Origin: Bacilli bacterium | GTDB lineage: Bacteria; Bacillota_I; Bacilli_A; RF39; UBA660 | Assembly: GCA_029100965.1 (NCBI GenBank) | Contig: JAQXQC010000055.1 | Span: 1-56,793 of the forward strand | DNA: 56,793 bases | Reading direction: 5' to 3' | Shown: one piece after another, positions 299 to 38,037 of the stretch | Position numbering within the stretch: the first letter of the stretch is position 1 | Layout: the number at the start of each line of letters is the position of its first letter | Translations under genes and position numbers: made by a program | The notes under the pieces: generated by a model | What the model was told of the DNA's origin: nothing | Database searches by the model: none | What the model saw: only the letters and a program-made list of their open reading frames with translations

Positions 299-2815
299 TT
301 AATCAAATATATCCCATCCAAGATCTAAATCAACATTTGTCTTGATTCCATCGATTTTTCCATTTTCGGAAAATTGCCATAATTTATAAGATGCTTGGTT
401 ATAAGTAGGGCTAGAAGATAATGCTTGATTATGGTTTGTTAATTTTGTCTGCCATTCAGCTAGCCATATATTGTATTTATTTTTTAAGTTATTCGTATCT
501 AGATAATTGGTTAACCAGCTCTTATTTGCATAAATACCACAATTATATCCGTTTGCTTCAATATTTTCACAAAAAGTTGAAGCAATGTTCGTTAATCTTT
601 CTTTTCCAAGATAAGTAAGTTTTGGTTCTTCCATATCAATATAAACGGATGTTTTTAAATTTGGTTTATAACTTACTTCTCTTAATACTCTTAAAACATG
701 TTCTGCTTCACTTGTTGCCGATTCGGAGTCTGCATTTAACCTTGTTGAACCAGTAACATTCTTAGCATAGGAATACAAGTAAACGGCATAAGGAATATTA
801 TACTTTTCACAATTTTGGACATTGGTTACAAATTTTTTATCGTCTTGTGAAAGCCAATTATCTCCAATTCCAAGTTTTATTACAACAAAATCAATATTTG
901 TATTAGCAACTTTTTCCCAGTCAATATCTCCCTGATACGAAGAAACATCGATTCCGGTATAACTTTTTTTAGTCTGGTTAACATTAAGTTTAAACAATTG
1001 ATTTGGATTAGTGTTGTTACATGTCCCAACTTGAATGTTTGTACCATTTTCTATATTACTATTCGCTAAACAAACATTTCCTTTTTTAGAAGTAATTAAG
1101 ATACTTCCATTTCCATCATCCTTTATTCTCCATAATTGCGCATCTGTGTTATTTCTTTTATATAGTTGAACATAATTTCCAGGTGTAATATTGCCTCCTT
1201 TTAAATCAATTGTTGTATTTCTGTTTAATGAACTTGTAATACTATAATAACCATTTTCTTCATAGTTAAAATACCAAATTTGAGATTTATTGTTATTAGA
1301 TGTAAAAATTTGAATATTTGTTTCATTTTGTTTTGACCCATTAGCAACTTCAATGACTTTGTTTTTGTCAATTGAACTAGAAATCGTGTAGTAACCATTC
1401 GCGATGGTTTTTCCATTTTCATTAATCTTTGTTTGTTCTATATAAAATATTTGAGCATTTTGTTGGTTAGGGGAGGTAAGATTAACATTTGTTCCATTCG
1501 CAATGTTACCATTTGAAATATTAAAATATAGCTGATTTTGGTTGATAAGATAAAACGTATTTTCATCGATATATTGTAAACTCCATTCTGTTGGTGTTTC
1601 TTGTAATAAAACATTGTTATTATTGTCACTAGATAAATATAGATTAGAATTTAATCCAGATTTGATGTAATAATTTTTATTCGCTAGTTTTTCAAAATAC
1701 CACTTTTGCGCATTTGTGTTATTGTCATCATAAGTTTGTACGTTTGTATTAGAAAGTCCAATTCCACCAGTTACATCAATAACTTTATTTCGATTATGAT
1801 TTGATTTGATCGTATAAATTCCACTTTCTAATGTTTGTTCATCAATTTTTGTAAATTGAAATATTTGTGCATTAGTGCCATTATCATAGTAAATTTGTAC
1901 ATTGGTTCCATTAGTAGAACCCGCTCCGTTTAAATCAAGTGCGAGTCTATATTTTTTAGTCATAATTTGATAATAGCCATTGTGTAAATCTTTGATTATC
2001 CAAGTTTGTGCATCAGTATTATTACAATCATATAGTTGTACATTCGTTCCACCGGTGAAAGATGCACCATTTACATCAAGACATTTTTGCTTATTTAATT
2101 TACTATGAATAGAGTAATATCCATTTTCAAGATATTTAACTATCCATTTTTGCGCATTCGTATTATTTTTTTCGTAAAGTTGAACATTTGCGTAATTTGC
2201 CTGACTTCCTCCAGAGACGTCAATAACTTTATTGGGATTCAAGATACTACCTATCGTATAAGTACCATCTTCTATTGTTTTTTCTGGTGTTGTAATTTTT
2301 ATTAATTTAAATTTTTGTGCATTCGTATTATTACATTGATATAATTGAACATTAGTACCATTTGAAGTTCCTCCCCCTTTTAAATCTAAGCAATAATTAT
2401 TGTCTATTGATTTTATGGTATAAATTTCATTTCCTATAGGAACTAAATTCCATTTTTGTGCATTCGTATTATTGGCATCATATAGTTGAATATTTGAAGA
2501 ATTTGTAAACAATCCATAGGTAATATCAAAGACTTTGTTTTGGTTGATACTACTAGCGATTCGATAATATCCGTCATCTTGTTTTGTAAAAATCCATTTT
2601 TGTGCATTCGTATCATTATCTTGATACAATTGAATATTAGAACCATTCGAAGTATTAGCACCAGATAAGTCAATTACTTTACTATTATTGAGTGTACCTT
2701 GAATAATATAAGTACCATCAGAAAATTCTTCTGCGTATGCTATTTTGAAGTTAAAAATTAAAGTAATTGTTAAAAGTAATAAGATTTTTTTCTTTTTCAT
2801 TAAATTTCTTTTCAT
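299..2815 (-). CDS. Secreted GH25-type lysozyme (muramidase) preceded by four ricin-B (beta-trefoil) lectin domains
   Basis: There is an N-terminal signal peptide (KKKILLLLTITLIFNFKIAYA). About 12 subrepeats of roughly 45 aa end in QxW-type motifs (NAQKW, DAQTW, NAQIF, SQIW), which makes four trefoils. The C-terminus has GH25-like motifs (GIDVSSYQGDIDW, YLYSYA, LWQFSENGKIDGI..VDLDL). Confidence 0.8.
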   Translation of the reverse strand: MKRNLMKKKKILLLLTITLIFNFKIAYAEEFSDGTYIIQGTLNNSKVIDLSGANTSNGSNIQLYQDNDTNAQKWIFTKQDDGYYRIASSINQNKVFDITYGLFTNSSNIQLYDANNTNAQKWNLVPIGNEIYTIKSIDNNYCLDLKGGGTSNGTNVQLYQCNNTNAQKFKLIKITTPEKTIEDGTYTIGSILNPNKVIDVSGGSQANYANVQLYEKNNTNAQKWIVKYLENGYYSIHSKLNKQKCLDVNGASFTGGTNVQLYDCNNTDAQTWIIKDLHNGYYQIMTKKYRLALDLNGAGSTNGTNVQIYYDNGTNAQIFQFTKIDEQTLESGIYTIKSNHNRNKVIDVTGGIGLSNTNVQTYDDNNTNAQKWYFEKLANKNYYIKSGLNSNLYLSSDNNNNVLLQETPTEWSLQYIDENTFYLINQNQLYFNISNGNIANGTNVNLTSPNQQNAQIFYIEQTKINENGKTIANGYYTISSSIDKNKVIEVANGSKQNETNIQIFTSNNNKSQIWYFNYEENGYYSITSSLNRNTTIDLKGGNITPGNYVQLYKRNNTDAQLWRIKDDGNGSILITSKKGNVCLANSNIENGTNIQVGTCNNTNPNQLFKLNVNQTKKSYTGIDVSSYQGDIDWEKVANTNIDFVVIKLGIGDNWLSQDDKKFVTNVQNCEKYNIPYAVYLYSYAKNVTGSTRLNADSESATSEAEHVLRVLREVSYKPNLKTSVYIDMEEPKLTYLGKERLTNIASTFCENIEANGYNCGIYANKSWLTNYLDTNNLKNKYNIWLAEWQTKLTNHNQALSSSPTYNQASYKLWQFSENGKIDGIKTNVDLDLGWDIFD

Positions 2816-4094: not shown

Positions 4095-5342
4095 GTGTGT
4101 AAGAGGAGAAAAAAAGTAATATTAGTTATAGGAATCGTTTTTACGATTATGGTAATAGGAATAGTTGGTGTAGTATTGCTTGATAGACAAAAGGAGGAGC
4201 CTCGGATAAAAGAATTGAGAGTAGAGTTAGGAGGCAAGTTAACAAATAATATTAAAGATTATTTAGGAAATAAAGATTTTAGATATGATGAATATGAGCT
4301 AAGTAATAGTGAATATAAGGATGAGGTGGGAAAGTATTCTTATATTGTTTCTAAGAAGAAGAGGAGTGTTTTAGATAAAGTACTGAAAAAGAAGACAATT
4401 TATTATGGGAATATTTATGTTGTAGATACCGTTTCACCTGTTTTAGAGGTTAAAGATATTGAAATTAAACAAGGAGAAGAAATTAGTTTAAATTCTTTTG
4501 TTGAAAGTTGTACAGATTTGTCAGAATGTTCAATTTCTTCTCCTGATGTAAGTAAATTAATTGAAATGCAATCTAAAGTTGGGGAATATGATTTAAATAT
4601 TGTTGGTGCTGATAAATATGGAAATACAGTTCAAAAAAAAGTTCATTTAAAAGTTAATGAGGTTCCTAAAGTTGAAGTTAAGAAAGAAGTTTCATCAGTT
4701 AGTAAAGGAAATGGGATTGCTGTTTTAAATTATCATTTTACGATAAGTGATGAAGAGAAAAGTAGTTGTTCACCATCTTCTATTTGTATGAATGAGAATT
4801 TATTTGATGAACATTTAAAATATATTAAAGAAAATGGTTTTTATACCGCAACATTAAAAGAGTTAGAAGATTATTTAGATGGATATATTGATTTACCAAA
4901 GAAGAGTGTTGTGATTACAATTGATGATGGATGGTTTGTGTCACGGGCGATTGAACGGTTGGAGAAGTATGATTTGCATGGTGTATTGTTTTTGATTGGG
5001 AGTTTAGCTCCAGTTACTGATTATGCGAGTAAAAATTTGGAAATTGCTTCTCATACTTGGAATTTACATGGAGCTTATGGATCGCTAGTGAATGCTTCTT
5101 TTGATACGATTATTGAAGATTTAAGTCAAAGCAAATCTTCTTTAAATGGAACACCTTATTTTTGTTATCCGTTTTATCAATATGATAATCATGTTATTGA
5201 GGCCTTGAAACAGACTGGATTTACGATGGCTTTTGCTGGGGGAGGCGTTAAAGCTAGAAGAGGTGTTGATAAATATAAGGTACCAAGAATTGTAGTTGGT
5301 GGAAATGATTCGGTTGCTACTCTTGCTAGTTATATTAATTGA
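4095..5342 (+). CDS. Membrane-anchored polysaccharide deacetylase (NodB/CE4 domain)
   Basis: An N-terminal TM helix is followed by a C-terminal NodB-like region (VVITIDDGW, HTWNLH). The start codon is GTG. Confidence 0.7.
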   Translation: MCKRRKKVILVIGIVFTIMVIGIVGVVLLDRQKEEPRIKELRVELGGKLTNNIKDYLGNKDFRYDEYELSNSEYKDEVGKYSYIVSKKKRSVLDKVLKKKTIYYGNIYVVDTVSPVLEVKDIEIKQGEEISLNSFVESCTDLSECSISSPDVSKLIEMQSKVGEYDLNIVGADKYGNTVQKKVHLKVNEVPKVEVKKEVSSVSKGNGIAVLNYHFTISDEEKSSCSPSSICMNENLFDEHLKYIKENGFYTATLKELEDYLDGYIDLPKKSVVITIDDGWFVSRAIERLEKYDLHGVLFLIGSLAPVTDYASKNLEIASHTWNLHGAYGSLVNASFDTIIEDLSQSKSSLNGTPYFCYPFYQYDNHVIEALKQTGFTMAFAGGGVKARRGVDKYKVPRIVVGGNDSVATLASYIN

Positions 5343-5357
5343 AAGGTGATTTAAAAA

Positions 5358-5816
5358 ATGAAAGAAAAGAAGAATTATAGTTTGAGATTTATTCAGTGGG
5401 GATTAAAAGTACTTCATTTGAATTTAAGTGAAGATAAGGTACATTTATTGGTACAAATATTTAATTTTGCGATTGTTGGGGTTATTGCTACTTTAATTGA
5501 TTTTATCTTTTTATATTTATTTAGGGAAGTATGTCATTTTAATGTTGTTGTTGCAAATAGTTTATCTTTTGCTATTTCTGTTATTTATAATTATTTTGCT
5601 AGTTTAACTTTTGTTTTTGATGTAGATAAGAGTAAAAGTCAGGGAAGAAACTTTGTTATTTTTATGGTTTGTAGTATAATAGGATTAGGGTTGAATGATT
5701 TATTCGTGTGGTTGATAACAGATATTTGTCATGTTTATTATATGATATCTAAAGTTATTGCTACGGTATTTGTGATGATTTTTAATTTTGTTACGAGAAA
5801 GAAATTTTTAGAGTAG
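5358..5816 (+). CDS. GtrA-family membrane protein (putative lipid-linked sugar flippase)
   Basis: The protein is about 150 aa with four TM segments, and its sequence pattern is GtrA-like (FAIVGVIATLIDFIFLYL ... NFVTRKKF). Confidence 0.7.
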   Translation: MKEKKNYSLRFIQWGLKVLHLNLSEDKVHLLVQIFNFAIVGVIATLIDFIFLYLFREVCHFNVVVANSLSFAISVIYNYFASLTFVFDVDKSKSQGRNFVIFMVCSIIGLGLNDLFVWLITDICHVYYMISKVIATVFVMIFNFVTRKKFLE

Positions 5817-6318: not shown

Positions 6319-7329
6319 ATGAAAATATTAGTAACAGGTGGATGTGGTTATATTGGTAGTCATACAGTAGTAGAATTATTAAATCATGGAATAGAAACAG
6401 TAATTATTGATAATTTGGTTAATTCTAAAAAGGAAGTAATTTCTAAGATTGAAGAAATTACGAAGAAAAAGCCTATTTTTTATGAAGGAGATGTAAGAGA
6501 TGAAGAACTCTTAAGAAGTATTTTTAAGTCTCATAAAATTGATGCTGTAATTCATTTTGCTGGGTTAAAAGCAGTAGGGGAATCGGTTGAAAAGCCTTTG
6601 GAATATTATCGGAATAATTTAGATAGTACTTTAATATTGCTTAGTGTGATGAGAGAGTTTAAAGTGAAGAGAATGATTTTTAGTAGTAGTGCGACGGTTT
6701 ATGGGGAGTGTAAGATAGTACCAATTAAGGAAGAATATCCAGTTGGTGGTACAACTAATCCTTATGGTACAACAAAGCTTATGATTGAACATATTTTAAA
6801 GGATTTAGCTATTTCAGATAAAGATATGTCGATTGTAATTTTAAGATATTTTAATCCAATTGGGGCTCATAGTAGTGGATTGATTGGGGATGATCCTAAT
6901 GGTATTCCTAATAATTTGATGCCTTATATTGTAAAAGTTGCTAGTGGAGATTTGCCTTATTTAAATGTTTTTGGTTCTGATTATGATACATCTGATGGAA
7001 CGGGAGTAAGAGATTATATTCATGTGGTTGATCTTGCTATTGGGCATGTTAAGGCTCTTTCTAAGGTAATGAAGGATACAGGAGTATTTATTTATAATTT
7101 AGGAACGGGAAGAGGATATAGTGTACTTGAGATTGTTAAGAGTTTTGAAGAGGTAAATAAGGTAAGTATTCCTTATGAAATAAAAGAAAGAAGAGCAGGA
7201 GATATTGCTTCTTGTTATGCTGATGTAAAAAAGGCTGAAGAAGAATTAGGATTTAAAGCTAAATATGGAATAGAAGAAATGGTTAGAGATAGTTGGGGTT
7301 TTTATTTAAGGAATAATGAAGAAAAATAG
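6319..7329 (+). CDS. galE: UDP-glucose 4-epimerase
   Basis: MKILVTGGCGYIGSH Rossmann motif, a YGTTK catalytic motif, and full-length GalE-like sequence. I prefer the ATG at 6319, which sits 7 nt after AGGAGG, over the ORF-track start at 6280. Confidence 0.9.
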   Translation: MKILVTGGCGYIGSHTVVELLNHGIETVIIDNLVNSKKEVISKIEEITKKKPIFYEGDVRDEELLRSIFKSHKIDAVIHFAGLKAVGESVEKPLEYYRNNLDSTLILLSVMREFKVKRMIFSSSATVYGECKIVPIKEEYPVGGTTNPYGTTKLMIEHILKDLAISDKDMSIVILRYFNPIGAHSSGLIGDDPNGIPNNLMPYIVKVASGDLPYLNVFGSDYDTSDGTGVRDYIHVVDLAIGHVKALSKVMKDTGVFIYNLGTGRGYSVLEIVKSFEEVNKVSIPYEIKERRAGDIASCYADVKKAEEELGFKAKYGIEEMVRDSWGFYLRNNEEK

Positions 7330-8632
7330 AAAAAAATTTTTAAGTCCTTATTTTCTTCTTTTTGTCTTTTTTTCTTTTCTTTTTTTTATTCATTGCTTTA
7401 CTAAATTTGGGGGAGATGATACTTCTTATTTTTCTTTGATGTTAGATACTTATTCTTTGTTTTCATTTTTAAAAATGAGGTATTTATCTTGGTCTAGTCG
7501 TATTATTATTGAGGGATTTTTAGTTGTTTTAAGTAGGTATCTATATTTATGGAGGTTTCTAGATAGTTTTATTTATACTTTATTGATTTATGCTAGTAAT
7601 CGTTTATTTTTTAAGAAAATATCTTTTAAGAATTTGCTTTTGACAGGTCTTGTTTTGTTATTATATCCTTTTTTGTTTGTAGGAGAAACGGGTTATTGTG
7701 CAACTTCTTTAAATTATTTATGGCCTCTTGCTTTGATGATGGTAGGATTTTTACCATATAGATTTTATTTATATCATGAAAGAATTCCTAGATATTTGTA
7801 TCCTATTAGTGTTTTAAGTATTCTTTATGCAGTTAATCATGAGCAAGCTGTTTGTATAGTATTTGCTGTATCAGTATTTTTTCTTATTTATGCTTTTATT
7901 CAAAGGAGTTCTAAAAGGTATCCAATTCTTTTAGTTTTACTTAGTACAATAAGTTTAGTTTTTATTTTGACTTGTCCGGGTAATTCTAATAGAATGGGAA
8001 TAGAACTTGCTCATTATTATCCAGATTATATCAATGCTAATATTATGGATAAAATTTATTTAGGAATGGTTTCTAGTACATCTATTTTATTAGATTGTAC
8101 ATGGATAATTTATTTTTTTGGTTTTATTTTATTTCTAAGTATTATTAGAAATGTAAAAAGAAGAGTTCCTAAAATTATTGCAATGATTTATTTTGGTATG
8201 TTAACTTTTATCTTTTTATTAAAAGTATATTGTGAAATTAAGAATTATCAGTATGGATTATTTAATTACTTTACTCAAGTAGGACATGTTTTTGTGTTTA
8301 GTAGGACAAATATTTGTTGGTTATTACTTATTGGTTTCTTATTTTGTACGATGATTTATTTACTTTATCAATTAGATAAAAAGAAATGTATTATTCCTAT
8401 TTTTATTCTTTTGTTAGGTTGTGGTAGTAGACTTATGATGGGATTTTCTCCTACTGTTTTTGCGTCTGGGAAAAGAACGGTAATTTTTCTATTTTTTTCT
8501 TTTTTGTTTTTAAGTATTCTTTTGATAAAGAAGTATTTTTCTTCATTTAAGAAAATTGATAAGAGATGTTTAATGTTTTTGCTTTTTGCTTTTTTTCTTT
8601 TAAATTTAGGAATATTCTTTTTTAGAATATGA
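7316..8632 (+). CDS. Polytopic membrane protein, possible GT-C-type glycosyltransferase or polymerase
   Basis: At least 10 predicted TM helices, and it sits inside the glycosylation cluster. The function is inferred from context only. Confidence 0.45.
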   Translation: MKKNRKKFLSPYFLLFVFFSFLFFIHCFTKFGGDDTSYFSLMLDTYSLFSFLKMRYLSWSSRIIIEGFLVVLSRYLYLWRFLDSFIYTLLIYASNRLFFKKISFKNLLLTGLVLLLYPFLFVGETGYCATSLNYLWPLALMMVGFLPYRFYLYHERIPRYLYPISVLSILYAVNHEQAVCIVFAVSVFFLIYAFIQRSSKRYPILLVLLSTISLVFILTCPGNSNRMGIELAHYYPDYINANIMDKIYLGMVSSTSILLDCTWIIYFFGFILFLSIIRNVKRRVPKIIAMIYFGMLTFIFLLKVYCEIKNYQYGLFNYFTQVGHVFVFSRTNICWLLLIGFLFCTMIYLLYQLDKKKCIIPIFILLLGCGSRLMMGFSPTVFASGKRTVIFLFFSFLFLSILLIKKYFSSFKKIDKRCLMFLLFAFFLLNLGIFFFRI

Positions 8633-26516: not shown

Positions 26517-27503
26517 ATGGTAAAAAAAATTTATAATTTATTATTTAAAAGAAAAAATTATAAATTTATTATTGGAATATTTCTAGGAATATTTTTTTCT
26601 ATAGTAGGAGTATATGCTGCTAGTAAATATACTTCTAAGAGTGTATATTATAATAATGAAAATAGTAGTTTATCTAGTGATGATGTACAGGGAGCTATTG
26701 ATGAGTTATCAGAGAAAGCAAAGAATCTTTCTAGTAGTGGATGTCCATCTGGTTATGCTTGTTTAGAGAAAAAAACTACTTTAGCGTTAGGAGATTATGT
26801 TAAGATGACACCAACTAAATCTTCTTATACAACAGATAAATCTAAAACAGGATATACAAGTACACAAACCATTAAACCTCAAGAATTAAATTTATGGCGA
26901 GTGATTAAAATTAATAGTGATGGAACAGTAGAGATGATTAGTGAACATGTATCTAGTACAGCAATATACTTTGGAGGAAAAACAGGGTACTTAAATTTAG
27001 TAGGCTATTTAAATGTACTTGCTAGTCAGTATGAAAATAGTACTTACACAAAAGGTTCTAGACATTTTGGTTATAATGGACAAACAGAATATATTACTGA
27101 TACAACAAAATTTGTTAATCCTGCACCATGGACTAGTTCAACTGGAAGTAGTACAGTAGAAAGGCAAGGAGGAGGAGATACTTTATATACTACAGACTAT
27201 AATTTAGTTTATACAGTGTTAGGAACTAGAGTGGCGACCAAACCAGGAAGCGCCGCTGGTTCATATTATTGGATGGCCTCACGTTACTATGGCTATTCGT
27301 CATCTACTAGCTATTACTGGCGCGGTCGTAGCGTGAGCACCTCGGGGTCGAATAGCAACTACAGCTTGTATCGCTATTACAGTTCAAGTTTCAACGCGGA
27401 CTACAATAGTAATTCCTTTCGCCCAATAGTGGTTCTGAAGTCAGGCCTCAAATACTATGGAGTCGGGACAGAGGATTATCCAATGGAAATATCAGTAAGT
27501 TAG
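26517..27503 (+). CDS. DGR variable protein 1: N-terminally anchored or secreted protein with a C-terminal variable region (probable C-type-lectin-like fold)
   Basis: An N-terminal hydrophobic anchor (FIIGIFLGIFFSIVGVYAA). The C-terminal 47 codons (VR1) align with the TR and differ from it at adenines. It is a paralogue of the 29571 and 36649 genes. Confidence 0.85.
   Translation: MVKKIYNLLFKRKNYKFIIGIFLGIFFSIVGVYAASKYTSKSVYYNNENSSLSSDDVQGAIDELSEKAKNLSSSGCPSGYACLEKKTTLALGDYVKMTPTKSSYTTDKSKTGYTSTQTIKPQELNLWRVIKINSDGTVEMISEHVSSTAIYFGGKTGYLNLVGYLNVLASQYENSTYTKGSRHFGYNGQTEYITDTTKFVNPAPWTSSTGSSTVERQGGGDTLYTTDYNLVYTVLGTRVATKPGSAAGSYYWMASRYYGYSSSTSYYWRGRSVSTSGSNSNYSLYRYYSSSFNADYNSNSFRPIVVLKSGLKYYGVGTEDYPMEISVS
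27285..27425 (+). repeat. DGR variable repeat VR1
   Basis: A 141-nt ungapped match to TR 28352-28492. I count 20 mismatches, 17 of them at TR adenines, and all 15 mismatches from codon 6 onward are at adenines. Confidence 0.9.
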
Positions 27504-27514
27504 GAAGTGTAGAA

Positions 27515-27547
27515 CCTCGGAGGACAGCCTAAGGGTGTTCACCGAGG
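27515..27547 (+). other. Conserved GC-rich hairpin just after the target-1 stop codon (copy 1 of 2)
   Basis: The fold is cctcgg-a-ggaca-g-cc-taa-gg-g-tgttc-a-ccgagg. A near-identical copy follows target 2. Confidence 0.6.
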
Positions 27548-27575: not shown

Positions 27576-27998
27576 GTGGCAGTCATTCATATGGTGAATA
27601 ATTTGAAAGAATTATTTCCTGATTATGTTTTATTATTAAAAATTGGTACTTTTTATGAGTGTTATTGTGATGATGCTAATATTGTTTCTTATTTATTTTC
27701 TTACAAAAGAAAAACTCTATCTAGTGGGGATAAGGTATGTGGATTTCCTCTTGTTTCTTATCATAAGGTAATCTCTAATTTAGAGAATAGAAATATTAAT
27801 TATATTTCTATTGATAAAACACATAATTATGAAGAAATAGATAAGGTTAATTATAAGAAAAAGAATCAATATCATGTGATTTTGGATAAAGCAAATTATT
27901 ATATCAATAATTTAGAGAGAATTGATAAGATTAAAAATTTTCTTTTAAAAGATAATTCTAAAATAGATGAGATAGAGAGATTGTTATATGAAAGATAA
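27576..27998 (+). CDS. Standalone MutS-domain-I-like protein (DGR accessory ORF, MSL-type)
   Basis: LKELFPDYVLLLKIGTFYECYCDDANIVS...CGFPLVSYHKVISNLENRNINYISID parallels the E. coli MutS N-terminus ([21 protein letters not shown]...[16 protein letters not shown]). This includes the F-x-E mismatch-contact motif (FYE, nt 27651-27659). The start is GTG with an AAGAAGG RBS. Confidence 0.7.
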   Translation: MAVIHMVNNLKELFPDYVLLLKIGTFYECYCDDANIVSYLFSYKRKTLSSGDKVCGFPLVSYHKVISNLENRNINYISIDKTHNYEEIDKVNYKKKNQYHVILDKANYYINNLERIDKIKNFLLKDNSKIDEIERLLYER

Positions 27999-28332
27999 AT
28001 TTTATGTTACTCGTTTAATTAAAGAATTAATTCATAGTTTTCATCAATATTTAACCAATTTTCCTCATAAGGAAATTGAGATAAAAAGAGAGATTATGTC
28101 TACTTCTTATCAAATGTTAAAAATTGCTTATGAAGCAAATACAACTTTTGATTTGAAAAAAAGAGTAGATATTCAAGATAAGATAATTTCTTATATTAAA
28201 TATTTGGATTATTTGGTTAATGTTTGCTATGATAAGCAAATTATTAATTCAAAGAGATATTTGAAATTTGGTGAGAATTTAGATTATTTATTAAAATATG
28301 TAATTGGATGGCGAAAGTCATCTAGGGCTTAG
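27988..28332 (+). CDS. avd: DGR accessory variability determinant (Avd, four-helix-bundle protein)
   Basis: A 114-aa, helical, basic protein located immediately upstream of the TR. The FP-HKE..IKREI...YEAN...KR....I...I..L..L pattern is typical of the Avd / 23S-IVS four-helix-bundle family. Confidence 0.75.
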   Translation: MKDKFYVTRLIKELIHSFHQYLTNFPHKEIEIKREIMSTSYQMLKIAYEANTTFDLKKRVDIQDKIISYIKYLDYLVNVCYDKQIINSKRYLKFGENLDYLLKYVIGWRKSSRA

Positions 28333-28351: not shown

Positions 28352-28492
28352 AATTATGACCATTCTTCATCTACTAACTATAACTGGAACGGTCGTAACG
28401 TGAACACCTCGGGGACGAATAGCAACAACAACTTGTATAACTATAACAGTTCAAGTTTCAACACGAACAACAATAGTAATTCCTTTCGCCCA
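28352..28492 (+). repeat. DGR template repeat (TR)
   Basis: A non-coding segment between avd and the RT. Read in the VR frame it gives NYDHSSSTNYNWNGRNVNTSGTNSNNNLYNYNSSSFNTNNNSNSFRP, with 17 AAY codons out of 47. It matches VR1, VR2 and VR3. Confidence 0.9.
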
Positions 28493-28627
28493 GTAACTTC
28501 TTCAAACTGTGGTAATATAAGTATTCTTATATTAGAGATAATGAAGAAATAGACTAAGTCCAATAGATTTATTCTATAAACAATAATTTAAAATATATCT
28601 GTTAGTAATTTAGGTGAAAGGGGATAT

Positions 28628-29574
28628 ATGAAAAGGAAAAATAATTTATATTCAAATGTATATAAATTTGATCATATAGAGAAGTGTTTTGATGAGATTT
28701 GTAGAAATACAAAGAATAAAAATAAAGTAAGTCAATTTAAAGAATTTAAGGCAATATATATTAGCCGAGTTTATCATGAATTAAAAAATAAAACTTATCA
28801 AGTAGGAAGTTTTCATGTATTTTATCTTTATGATCTAAAAAGAGAAGGATAGTTAGTCAAAATATGTATGATAAGTTAGTGAATCATTTGGTTAGTAGGT
28901 ATATTTTATATGATGCTTTAATTCCTTGTTTGATTGATTCTAATTGTGCATCAAGACCAAATAAGGGAGTAAGTTATGCTTTAAAGTTATATTATCAATA
29001 TCGAAGAGTATTGGATAAAAAATATTCTTATTATTATATTTTAAAATGTGATATTAAGTCTTATTTTGCTAGTATTGATATTGAAATATTAAAGAATAAA
29101 TTAAGAAAAAAGATTAAAGATAAAGATGCTTTAACTATTATTTATCAGATATTAGATAGTGATACTACTCTTAGTATAGGATTTATGACTAGTCAAATAT
29201 TAGGAATATTTTATTTAAATGATTTAGATCATTATATAAAAGAAGAATTAAAAATAAAATATTATGTTAGATATCAAGATGATTTTTTATTATTACATTG
29301 GGATAAACAATATTTAAAATATTGTTTAGATAAGATAAAAGAGTTTTTAAAAAGAGGGAAATTAGAATTGAATGAGAAGACTAGAATTTATAAAAATACA
29401 AATAATATTATTTTTCTTGGGAGAAATAAATATAATAGAAGTTCTAAATATAGAAAACAATTTAGAAAATTAAAACATAAGAAGTATTTATATGATGTAG
29501 GAAAAATTCAATTAAACAGTTATTTAGCTAGTTATATTAATTATAGAAATATTAATGGAGGTTTGAGAAAATGA
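28628..29574 (+). CDS. DGR-type reverse transcriptase, interrupted by a -1 frameshift at an A5 run (28837-28841)
   Basis: RT motifs are present: KCDIKSYFASID, the IGFMTSQ DGR-specific (I/L/V)GxxxSQ signature, YVRYQDDFLLL (YxDD), and FLG. ORFs 28628-28852 and 28864-29574 join as ...FYLYDLK/KRRIVSQNMYDK if one A is added. Confidence 0.85.
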
Positions 29575-30521
29575 AAAAAAGTAAGGGTTATAATTATAAA
29601 TTATTAATGGGAGTGATTTTAGGAATACTTTTATCTGTGGTTGGTGTAAGGGCTGTTAGTTATCTTGGAAGTGGTTCAGAATTAGTTTACGATAATAGTA
29701 GTAGTGGACTTTCCTCTGTTAATGTTCAAAATGCTTTAGATGAAGTTTATAGTAAAATTTGTCCTGATAACTATGTATGTTTCAAGAAGAAAAGTACTTT
29801 AGCATTAGGAGATTATGTTCAGATGACACCAACTAAATCTTCTTATACAACAGATACTTCTAAAACAGGATATACAAGTACGCAAACTATTAATCCTCAA
29901 GAATTAAATCTATGGAGGGTGATTAAAATTAATGATGATGGAACGGTAGAGATGATTAGTGAGCATGTCTCTAGTACAGCGGTATATTTTCAAGGACAAA
30001 CAGGATATCAAAATTTAGTAGGCTATTTAAATGTTCTTGCTAGTCAGTATGAGAATAGTACTTATACGAAAGGTTCTAGATATTTTGGTTATAATGGACA
30101 AACAGAATATATTACGGATACATCAAAATTTGTTAATCCTGCACCATGGACTAGTTCAACCGGAAGTAGTACAGTAGAAAGTCAAGGAGGAGGAGATACT
30201 TTATATGCAACAGATTATAATTTAGTTAATACAGTGTTAGCGACTAAAGTGGCAACTAAACCTAACAGTGCATCTGGTTCAGATTATTGGATGGCTTCTC
30301 GTGACTATTATTATTCTTCATCTACTAGCTATGGCTGGTACGGTCGTAGTGTGGACGCCTCGGGGGCGAATAACATCATCTATTTGTATCGCTATAGCAG
30401 TTCAAGTTTCAGCACGGACAACGATAGTAATTCCCTTCGCCCAATAGTGGTTCTGAAGTCAGGACTCAAATACTATGGAGTTGGGACAGAAGACTATCCA
30501 ATGGAAATATCAGTAAGTTAG
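29571..30521 (+). CDS. DGR variable protein 2 (paralogue of target 1)
   Basis: Its ATG overlaps the RT stop codon (ATGA). It has an N-terminal anchor, a scaffold that by eye is about 90% nt-identical to target 1, and a C-terminal VR2. Confidence 0.85.
   Translation: MKKSKGYNYKLLMGVILGILLSVVGVRAVSYLGSGSELVYDNSSSGLSSVNVQNALDEVYSKICPDNYVCFKKKSTLALGDYVQMTPTKSSYTTDTSKTGYTSTQTINPQELNLWRVIKINDDGTVEMISEHVSSTAVYFQGQTGYQNLVGYLNVLASQYENSTYTKGSRYFGYNGQTEYITDTSKFVNPAPWTSSTGSSTVESQGGGDTLYATDYNLVNTVLATKVATKPNSASGSDYWMASRDYYYSSSTSYGWYGRSVDASGANNIIYLYRYSSSSFSTDNDSNSLRPIVVLKSGLKYYGVGTEDYPMEISVS
30303..30443 (+). repeat. DGR variable repeat VR2
   Basis: A 141-nt ungapped match to the TR. I count 26 mismatches, 18 of them at TR adenines. 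Confidence 0.85.
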
Positions 30522-30531
30522 GAAGTGGAGA

Positions 30532-30580
30532 ACCTCGGAGGACAGCCTAAGGGTGATCACCCGAGGTGGCTATCTTTTTT
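30532..30580 (+). terminator. Conserved GC-rich hairpin (copy 2) plus T-run: probable terminator of the DGR operon
   Basis: acctcgg...ccgaggt stem followed by ggctatctttttt. Confidence 0.6.
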
Positions 30581-36648: not shown

Positions 36649-38037
36649 ATGGACTCTAAAAAAAGATTAATTATTACTAGTGTTATATCTATTATTCTTG
36701 TATCTATTTTATTTATTGGGAGTACTTATTCCATTTTTACTTCTACTGATGTTGATCAAGAATCTAATGTATATCAAACGGGAAATTTGTCAATTCAGTT
36801 TGAAAATACAAATAATGTTGCTTTAGAAATTACTAAGCCAATGTCGGATCAAAAAGCAGTTTCTTTGACTCCATATCATCTTACGGTTACCAATAATGGT
36901 ACAGTTGCGTATAAATTTAATATTGTACTTAATCCAACAACAGCAACAGATGAAATTAATCATCAATATATTATGACTAAAGTAGGACAATTGGATAGTA
37001 AAAAATTTAGTGATTGTACAAATAATATTATTAAAGAAGGAGTTATTTTGTTGCCTAAAACAAGTGTTGATATTGATGTTCGTGTTTGGTTATCTGATAC
37101 TGTTCAAAATACAGAGGTTAATAAGAGTTTTAGTGCAAAATTATCTATAGATGGAGTTGGGGCTTATAGTAAGCATACAGAGGTGGATAATAGTGCGTTA
37201 GCATCTAATGATAAATTAGCTAGTCGATTTAGTTATGATAATTCTAAGTCTAATTTTGATTGTTCTGATGTACAGTGTGCGATTGATACTTTAGATAAAG
37301 CATTAGGAGGTAGTGATTTATTTTTAGGGGCATATGTTTCCATGACACCTAAAAAATCTTCTTATACAACAGATACTTCTAAAACAGGATATACGAGTAG
37401 TCAAACAATTAATCCTCAAGAATTAAATCTATGGAGGGTAATTAAAATTAATAGTGATGGAACGGTAGAGATGATTAGTGAGCATGTATCTAGTACAGAT
37501 GTATACTTTCGAGGAAAAACAGGGTACTTAAATTTAGTAGGATATTTAAATGTACTTGCTAGTCAATACGAGAATAGTACTTATACAAAAGGGTCTAGAC
37601 ATTTTGGGTATAATGGACAAACAGAATATATTACCGATACTTCCAAATTTACTTCTAGTGCTCCATGGACTTGTGGTACTGGAGGAAGTTGTAATCCAGT
37701 AGAAAGTCAAGGAGGAGGAGATTGGTTATATACAACAGATTATAATTTAGTTAAAGCGACTGAAGTGGTAACTAAACCTAACAGTGCATCTGGTTCATCT
37801 TATTGGATGGCTTCTCGTGACTATAGCTATTCTTCATCTACTAGCTATGGCTGGTACGGTCATAGTGTGGACGCCTCGGGGGCGAATAACCTCAACCATT
37901 TGTATGACTATGTCGGTTCAAGTTTCAGCACGAGCAGCAATAGTAAGTCCCTTCGCCCAATAGTGACTTTGAAGTCTGGACTTAAATATACAGGATCTGG
38001 AACTGCTGATGATCCATTTAAACCATCTACAAAGTAG
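36649..38037 (+). CDS. DGR variable protein 3: SipW-type signal peptide plus a TasA/camelysin-like N-terminal module, fused to the shared scaffold and VR3
   Basis: The N-terminus ...LFIGSTYSIFTSTDVDQESNVYQTGNLSIQF resembles TasA/CalY-class signal peptides and their mature N-termini. The C-terminal half is paralogous to targets 1 and 2 and ends in VR3. Confidence 0.8.
   Translation: MDSKKRLIITSVISIILVSILFIGSTYSIFTSTDVDQESNVYQTGNLSIQFENTNNVALEITKPMSDQKAVSLTPYHLTVTNNGTVAYKFNIVLNPTTATDEINHQYIMTKVGQLDSKKFSDCTNNIIKEGVILLPKTSVDIDVRVWLSDTVQNTEVNKSFSAKLSIDGVGAYSKHTEVDNSALASNDKLASRFSYDNSKSNFDCSDVQCAIDTLDKALGGSDLFLGAYVSMTPKKSSYTTDTSKTGYTSSQTINPQELNLWRVIKINSDGTVEMISEHVSSTDVYFRGKTGYLNLVGYLNVLASQYENSTYTKGSRHFGYNGQTEYITDTSKFTSSAPWTCGTGGSCNPVESQGGGDWLYTTDYNLVKATEVVTKPNSASGSSYWMASRDYSYSSSTSYGWYGHSVDASGANNLNHLYDYVGSSFSTSSNSKSLRPIVTLKSGLKYTGSGTADDPFKPSTK
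37819..37959 (+). repeat. DGR variable repeat VR3 (remote from the cassette)
   Basis: A 141-nt ungapped match to the TR. I count about 29 mismatches, about 20 of them at TR adenines. Confidence 0.85.

Follow-up and report, generated by a model that had tools for sequence, protein, structure and literature searches.

Among the accessory genes of diversity-generating retroelements (DGRs), the MutS-like genes (MSL) form one of the four classes defined by Wu et al. (2017/18, NAR 46:11; PMC5758913): 16 of 372 DGRs carried one, the proteins measured 112–283 amino acids (aa), and avd was present in every case, HRDC in none. The DGR of Legionella carries one, in a cassette type named ‘Architecture D’ (PMC5758913); a 2021 review also includes MSL among DGR accessory genes, and Msl has been reported in three Bacteroides DGRs (Macadangdang et al., bioRxiv 10.1101/2024.11.15.621889). 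MSL-type elements of Bacteroides include Bfr, Bth and Bun. Here we describe an open reading frame (ORF) at positions 27576–27998 of contig JAQXQC010000055.1, from the metagenome-assembled genome (MAG) of an uncultured member of the Bacilli; the whole 56,793-nucleotide (nt) stretch analysed is referred to below as the window. This ORF almost certainly encodes the MSL accessory protein of a DGR, as every feature of the class that was checked is present: size, homology to MutS domain I, location in a DGR cassette, and an avd gene without HRDC. The assignment uses the class definition of Wu et al., with the 16 published MSLs compared by description rather than by alignment. The initial annotation of this DNA, made from its letters alone, had already pointed to an ‘MSL’ accessory class, and correctly: the class is that of Wu et al., who name the Legionella DGR within it (PMC5758913).

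The gene and those of its parts that matter to the argument are as follows.

27576–27998, forward strand: MSL gene, encoding a MutS-like DGR accessory protein of 140 aa (ORF, Pfam MutS_I, AlphaFold2 (AF2) model and Foldseek)
27588–27815, forward strand: stretch matched by Pfam MutS_I (aa 5–80)
27651–27659, forward strand: codons ttt-tat-gag for F26-Y27-E28, the Phe-x-Glu equivalent (sequence, and alignment with Taq and E. coli MutS)
27870–27989, forward strand: C-terminal two-helix extension (aa 99–138), not present in MutS domain I (model and family matches)

The ORF starts with GTG, 7–8 nt downstream of an AGAAGG Shine–Dalgarno-like motif, and this start is backed by the homologues, which likewise begin ‘MAV..M’; its translation is identical to NCBI record MDD5827026.1, annotated ‘hypothetical protein’. 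Pfam MutS_I (PF01624) matches aa 5–80 on profile positions 5–84 of 113, scoring 37.4 bits where the gathering cut-off is 20.6 (E 3.2e-9), and a phmmer search of PDB sequences aligned ‘KIGTFYECY’ of MSL to ‘QVGDFYECF’ of Taq MutS (E 4e-4) and to ‘RMGDFYELF’ of E. coli MutS, G24 upstream of F26-Y27-E28 completing the motif G-x-F-Y-E. The ORF is nonetheless not a MutS proper, a protein of about 800 aa with connector, clamp and ATPase: the NCBIfam MutS equivalogs match positions 10–74 only, with 27 bits (cut-off 480) and 22 bits (cut-off 642), and neither Pfam nor NCBIfam finds a connector, core/lever, clamp, ABC ATPase or helix-turn-helix (HTH) domain within the 140 aa.

Structure prediction gave the same answer. 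An AF2 model built from an alignment of 25 relatives (predicted local distance difference test, pLDDT, 91.4; predicted template modelling score, pTM, 0.82) was compared with the PDB by Foldseek, and domain I of MutS, MSH6 or MSH3 was the aligned part in all 47 matches at E ≤ 1e-3, of which 1nne_B ranked first (E 5e-6; root-mean-square deviation (rmsd) 2.2 Å over 98 columns; template modelling (TM) score 0.59, query-normalised). In the model, the helices and strands of the domain I fold extend from aa 1 to about 91, and two long helices (aa 99–125 and 127–138) lie beyond them, outside the Pfam match. Most full-length members among the best 150 clusters of the family (see below) match the family profile over approximately residues 1–139, and the helical tail therefore belongs to the MSL family; in a set of 61 diverse full-length members N97 and Y99 are conserved to at least 90%, and in the wider representatives the figure is 83% (99/119). 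As modelled, the whole of MSL is thus accounted for by MutS domain I and the helical tail. The initial annotation had proposed by eye a stand-alone homologue of MutS domain I inside a DGR, with the Phe-x-Glu pair kept as FYE and all other MutS domains missing, and the profile matches, the model, the codons and the MutS alignment agree with it on each of these points.

The cassette surrounding the gene contains a template repeat (TR), variable repeats (VRs) in the target genes, avd and a reverse transcriptase (RT) gene.

26517–27503, forward strand: target gene 1 (328 aa, N-terminal membrane anchor), with VR1 at 27288–27428
27988–28332, forward strand: avd (114 aa, isoelectric point 9.5), matching the PHROG ‘Avd protein of DGR’ (E 5.6e-13)
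28355–28495, forward strand: TR of 141 nt, of which 50 (35%) are adenines
28628–29574, forward strand: DGR RT, split (RVT_1, E 2.4e-13)
29571–30521, forward strand: target gene 2 (316 aa), with VR2 at 30306–30446
36649–38037, forward strand: remote third target paralogue (462 aa), with VR3 at 37822–37962 (tblastn, blastn)

The order is therefore target 1/VR1–MSL–avd–TR–RT–target 2/VR2, with MSL between target 1 and avd as first annotated. Targets 1 and 2 are paralogues that flank the cassette and carry their VRs at the C-terminal end, and the third target lies 8 kb away. Differences from the TR fall largely on its adenines in all three repeats (16 of 19 in VR1, 17 of 25 in VR2, and 19 of 28 in VR3, which is 81% identical to the TR). 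The product of avd is also matched, below their cut-offs, by the bAvd and DivGenRetAVD profiles, and no cassette protein has a Pfam match to HRDC.

The MSL family extends far beyond the 16 genes of the first report. A word-indexed search returned 39 close relatives with 59–99% identity, and an exhaustive profile search covering 1.84 billion cluster representatives found 938 MSL clusters (at 50% identity) with E ≤ 1e-3, 230 of them with E ≤ 1e-10. The best 150 of the 938 are all 58–187 aa in length, mostly 140–155, and Pfam MutS_I was matched by each of 61 diverse members tested singly. Fourteen close loci, spread over at least three chromosomal contexts, share the order target–MSL–avd–TR–RT(–target), with which a fifteenth (L015), cut off at its MSL match, agrees as far as it goes; their sources are gut and rumen metagenomes and MAGs with the labels Bacilli, Firmicutes or ‘Tenericutes’. 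Among seven distant members (27–40% identity) that were traced to contigs, six stand beside bAvd and/or RVT_1 genes: MSL–avd–RT in L016, L027 and L029, avd–RT–x–MSL in L019, RT–MSL in L026, and, in L021, MSL–avd with an RT and a second MutS_I gene on the opposite strand. Conservation of the ORF beside related DGRs, for which the initial annotation had called as a check, is thus found well beyond its close relatives. In annotated phage and plasmid collections tblastn of MSL gave no match, and PHROGs contain no MSL family, so that nothing points to phages or plasmids as carriers of this clade.

Two of the distant contigs have further peculiarities. On the 5.3-kb contig of L021, the MutS_I genes (2141–2590, forward strand, 149 aa; 4284–4697, reverse strand, 137 aa) flank avd and a split RT, an arrangement that could represent two head-to-head cassettes or one that has been rearranged. 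In L027, the source gene calls at 372–824 and 1744–2496 read through in-frame TGA codons, and translating the locus under table 11 does not yield the query, which suggests a TGA-recoding code (table 4 or 25) as the one used to annotate this MSL-type DGR host.

A decaying fragment or chance ORF without function is a reading to which we give almost no credence, and the family data speak to it directly. Frameshifted or internally deleted MSL copies do occur in two relatives (L010 and L014), and the seventh distant member, L024, is an orphan on a 2.9-kb contig without DGR genes, where a 130-aa homologue (1046–1438) has ‘RKVYR’ in place of Gly-x-Phe; no other sampled member lacks Gly-x-Phe, and none lacks a DGR gene on the contig, so that this copy is probably in decay. 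A non-functional remnant is contradicted, however, by the conservation of MSL as a whole: full length is kept in hundreds of clusters, synteny persists down to 27% identity, and the fold model is confident. Moreover, pairwise ratios of nonsynonymous to synonymous substitution rates (dN/dS) between loci are 0.13–0.55 for MSL, compared with 0.05–0.27 for Avd and 0.17–0.37 for RT (with dS near saturation), and MSL is therefore under purifying selection that is looser than that on Avd and RT.

The junction of MSL with avd is also informative. In this cassette the avd ATG lies inside the end of MSL, and in most loci checked the MSL stop overlaps the avd start (by 11 nt here, in L001 and in L006, and by 8–31 nt in distant loci), which suggests that MSL and Avd are made together; the two genes abut without overlap in L012, and MSL lies 3′ of RT in L019 and L026. 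From sequence, the C-terminal helical module and the avd overlap point to action within an Avd–RT complex. MSL might instead act in cDNA synthesis, binding the TR-RNA:cDNA hybrid or the RT–Avd ribonucleoprotein and tuning adenine misincorporation, priming or processivity. Co-expression with avd through overlapping genes agrees with this, as do three DGR RTs that bear a C-terminal MutS_I-like extension (PMC5758913). Such extensions suggest a physical coupling of MSL and RT. We nevertheless consider a role in synthesis improbable, as BPP-1 RT–Avd and RNA suffice for adenine-mutagenic cDNA synthesis, and MutS domain I is a wedge for the minor groove of duplex DNA, for which we know of no binding to RNA:DNA hybrids.

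The RT of this contig is interrupted. It is split into ORFs of 74 and 236 aa by a 1-nt deletion near 28836, where GAACCT has become GATCT in the conserved YEPKKRRI motif, as judged against the intact 315-aa RT of L005, the same chromosomal locus from another metagenome (approximately 93–94% nucleotide identity over the cassette). Because of this split, the DGR copy of this contig may be inactive. Programmed −1 frameshifting at ‘CTA AAA AG’ was considered and ruled out, as L005 differs by a 1-nt indel upstream of the A-run. L005 has its own lesion, a frame change at the MSL/avd junction (5001–5644) that alters the C-terminus of MSL (143 aa) and cuts avd to 78 aa. Similar RT damage recurs elsewhere: in three separate assemblies (L001, with its RT at 6677–7634, L003 and L004) the RT is split at the same point into ORFs of 224 and 101 aa, in L001 by a 5-nt deletion directly after the YQDD codons, and other, differing frame breaks are found in L014 (6963–7903), L027 (1744–2674) and L021 (3377–4268). 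Homopolymer sequencing error can be discounted for the first three, on which separate assemblies agree, and recurrent RT inactivation looks real rather than an artefact of assembly. MSL and avd are intact in most of the loci in which the RT is broken. Relatives with an intact DGR include L002, L006 and L009.

What the family conserves within domain I is narrower than the Phe-x-Glu pair. Among MSL representatives at 50% identity with residues at the columns concerned (n = 135; n = 144 for Phe57), Gly24 and Phe26 are each present in 130 of 135 (96%), Asp33 in 128 of 135, and Phe57 of the ‘GFP’ loop in 140 of 144, whereas Glu28 is found in only 28 of 135 (21%), the position being otherwise occupied by His (30), Asn (20), Lys (15), Tyr (13) or Arg (12), among others. 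Glu is at least 90% conserved within the subclade of the MSL described here, whose motif is G-[TN]-F-Y-E. The full F-x-E is thus a trait of this subclade and not the conserved property of MSL, and the weight that the initial annotation had placed on its retention does not carry over to the family. [quoted passage not shown] We infer from this pattern that MSL activity needs the Phe wedge and not the mismatch-discriminating Glu. With the wedge kept, Glu varying and no ATPase to which it might signal, the family looks more like a DNA-inserting binder than a discriminator of the MutS kind.

How could such a binder serve a DGR? In these elements the mutagenised cDNA has to replace the VR and a heavily mismatched intermediate has to survive host mismatch repair, and MSL is the sole DGR-encoded protein with an obvious link to the heteroduplex and mismatch-repair step. 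In a Bacteroides DGR that lacks Msl, deletion of mutS raised VR mutagenesis 5–10-fold with an unchanged spectrum, which its authors read as all-or-nothing heteroduplex repair (bioRxiv 10.1101/2024.11.15.621889), and in E. coli reconstitutions of DGRs mutS was deleted, or dominant-negative MutL expressed, to recover DGR mutations. The effect of mutS deletion on Bacteroides retrohoming lends indirect support to the plausible idea, suggested in the initial annotation, of an evasion of mismatch repair, and we regard it as quite possible, as a tentative first choice, that MSL, together with Avd–RT, occupies the mismatched cDNA:VR heteroduplex and shields it from host MutS. Lacking clamp, connector and ATPase, MSL would be unable to encircle DNA or to signal to MutL. 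Produced along with Avd, it would dock on the Avd–RT complex, perhaps by way of its helical tail, and would be brought to the place of pairing between adenine-mutagenised cDNA and VR. By inserting its conserved Phe as a wedge into this weakened heteroduplex with its multiple mismatches, MSL could sit on the lesion and yet give MutL no licence to act; host MutS would then miss the heteroduplex, the parental VR would not be restored, and more retrohoming events would survive. That MSL is, more specifically, an anti-mismatch-repair device encoded by the retroelement, without ATPase and mostly without Glu, which blocks MutS locally through delivery by Avd–RT, is conceivable but somewhat doubtful. 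If it is true, diversification would be spared the all-or-nothing reversal known from Bacteroides and the host would not become a global mutator, and the kept Phe, variable Glu and helical tail would mark a ‘binder without licence to repair’.

The same residues, with a further feature of the locus, bear on a second role, as a targeting or integration factor whose Phe wedge would bind distorted DNA and promote integration regardless of mismatch repair. The sites at which it might act include a D-loop or annealing junction, the cDNA:VR heteroduplex, and a hairpin downstream of the targets.

27515–27547, forward strand: GC-rich hairpin (CCTCGG...CCGAGG) just 3′ of the target 1 stop codon (fold z-score −2.6)
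30533–30565: hairpin with an identical 26-nt core, 3′ of the target 2 stop codon

Two exact copies of this core compare with none expected by chance, and the hairpins are GC-rich in a genome of 27.5% GC; they could be terminators or DGR target-recognition elements. Their presence 3′ of both adjacent targets would suit an integration factor, as would the fixed cassette positions of MSL and its overlap with avd, and a family that keeps Phe and Gly and not Glu is better explained by general binding to kinked or destabilised DNA than by mismatch discrimination. Integration of DGR cDNA is, in addition, poorly understood in the literature. Yet most DGRs integrate their cDNA without any MSL, direct evidence for such a role is absent, and the third target (36649–38037), where the 26-nt core was not found, has a diversified VR all the same; on balance we judge an integration role somewhat unlikely.

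A decoy at the level of proteins, with MSL binding and inhibiting the host MutS or MutL rather than DNA, would explain a MutS-derived fold that has no need of Glu, and dominant-negative MutL does raise DGR output in E. coli. This reading leaves the near-invariant Gly-x-Phe DNA-insertion hairpin unexplained, however, and a global inhibitor of repair would turn the host into a mutator. The MutS dimer is held together by the ATPase and C-terminal domains, and the connector and ATPase domains are where MutL docks; neither site is on domain I, and a decoy is very improbable.

Returning to the shielding of the heteroduplex from MutS, several observations weigh against it. Most of the DNA affinity of MutS comes from the clamp domains of the dimer, and a lone domain I such as MSL may bind DNA only weakly unless tethered by a partner. 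With Glu in only 21% of the family, there is reason to doubt that the conserved activity is mismatch discrimination of the MutS kind; the joint conservation of Phe and Glu across the family that would mark a functional mismatch sensor is not what is seen in MSL. The RT of this very contig is frameshifted, and no mutS or mutL is encoded in the 57-kb window (mutS having been sought among large ORFs). The majority of DGRs function without MSL, BPP-1 among them, and MutS was reported not to be required for BPP-1 retrohoming (PMC5758913); likewise, the highly active Bacteroides Bov element works without MSL (bioRxiv 10.1101/2024.11.15.621889). Finally, no experiment on any MSL was found in the literature searched, in keeping with the earlier remark that the class has no experimentally defined function.

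This locus brings no new class, and neither the class, named in 2017, nor its link to mismatch repair is new, the idea having already been voiced in the literature; one of the E. coli reconstitutions gives MutS-like homologues as its rationale. What is new here is the size of the family, the survey of its linkage to DGR cassettes, the purifying selection upon it, and the retention of Gly-x-Phe while Glu varies, and the survey around the locus sharpens the experiments that might be done on MSL. DGR directed-evolution systems currently depend on mutS deletion or dominant-negative MutL, and, if it is true that MSL masks heteroduplexes locally from MutS, it could be a practical addition to such systems.

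As to its setting, the contig is chromosomal with 27.5% GC, and the housekeeping genes of the window include those for MurE, GerQ, CinA, NAD kinase, UvrC, SMC and DnaG. Unrelated to the DGR, positions 299–2815 on the reverse strand encode a protein of 838 aa that combines eight ricin-B lectin repeats with a GH25 lysozyme domain at its C-terminus.

Four groups of known proteins can be set beside MSL. First, domain I of bacterial MutS1 (E. coli residues 2–115; Taq) has the same fold (Foldseek rmsd 1.2–2.6 Å over approximately 70–100 columns for the better-fitting chains), and shares with MSL the Gly-x-Phe-Tyr-Glu hairpin and the ‘G-F/I-P’ loop. In contrast to MutS1, MSL has no ATP-driven sliding clamp and no recruitment of MutL, adds the two-helix tail, and has the Glu mostly replaced across the family. 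Second, domain I of MSH6, with ‘GKFYE’ and ‘SGFP’, is the best sequence match of the MSL family profile (E 6e-4), and in MSH3 and MSH2 domain I can function without Phe-x-Glu (PMC3848065); unlike MSL, the MSH6 and MSH3 domains sit in heterodimeric ATPases of approximately 1000 aa or more. Third, stand-alone MutS_I proteins of phages (L023, 106 aa; BFVD A0A8S5PPT8, 153 aa, and A0A8S5PL02, 74 aa) are, like MSL, short and have domain I as their only MutS domain, and BFVD A0A8S5L9N2 is a further such protein. That of L023 (50–370 of IMG/VR UViG_3300021431_000238), with ‘GSFYETY’, ‘MAGFP’ and ‘VAICE’, shares FYE with the present MSL and matches PHROG 8439 (annotated as of unknown function). It differs from MSL in having no DGR genes within the 5.2 kb read and no MSL-type C-terminal helices, and is nearer to true MutS (‘MAGFP’, ‘VAICE’); the phage proteins may represent a separate capture of MutS domain I. 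Fourth, and closest, the published MSLs (Architecture D; Bacteroides Msl) are, like the protein described here, small, comprise the mismatch-recognition domain only, and lie inside a cassette with avd and without HRDC. Nothing in the present copy is different in kind from these: it comes from a low-GC gut Bacilli MAG, and its DGR has two flanking targets and a remote third.

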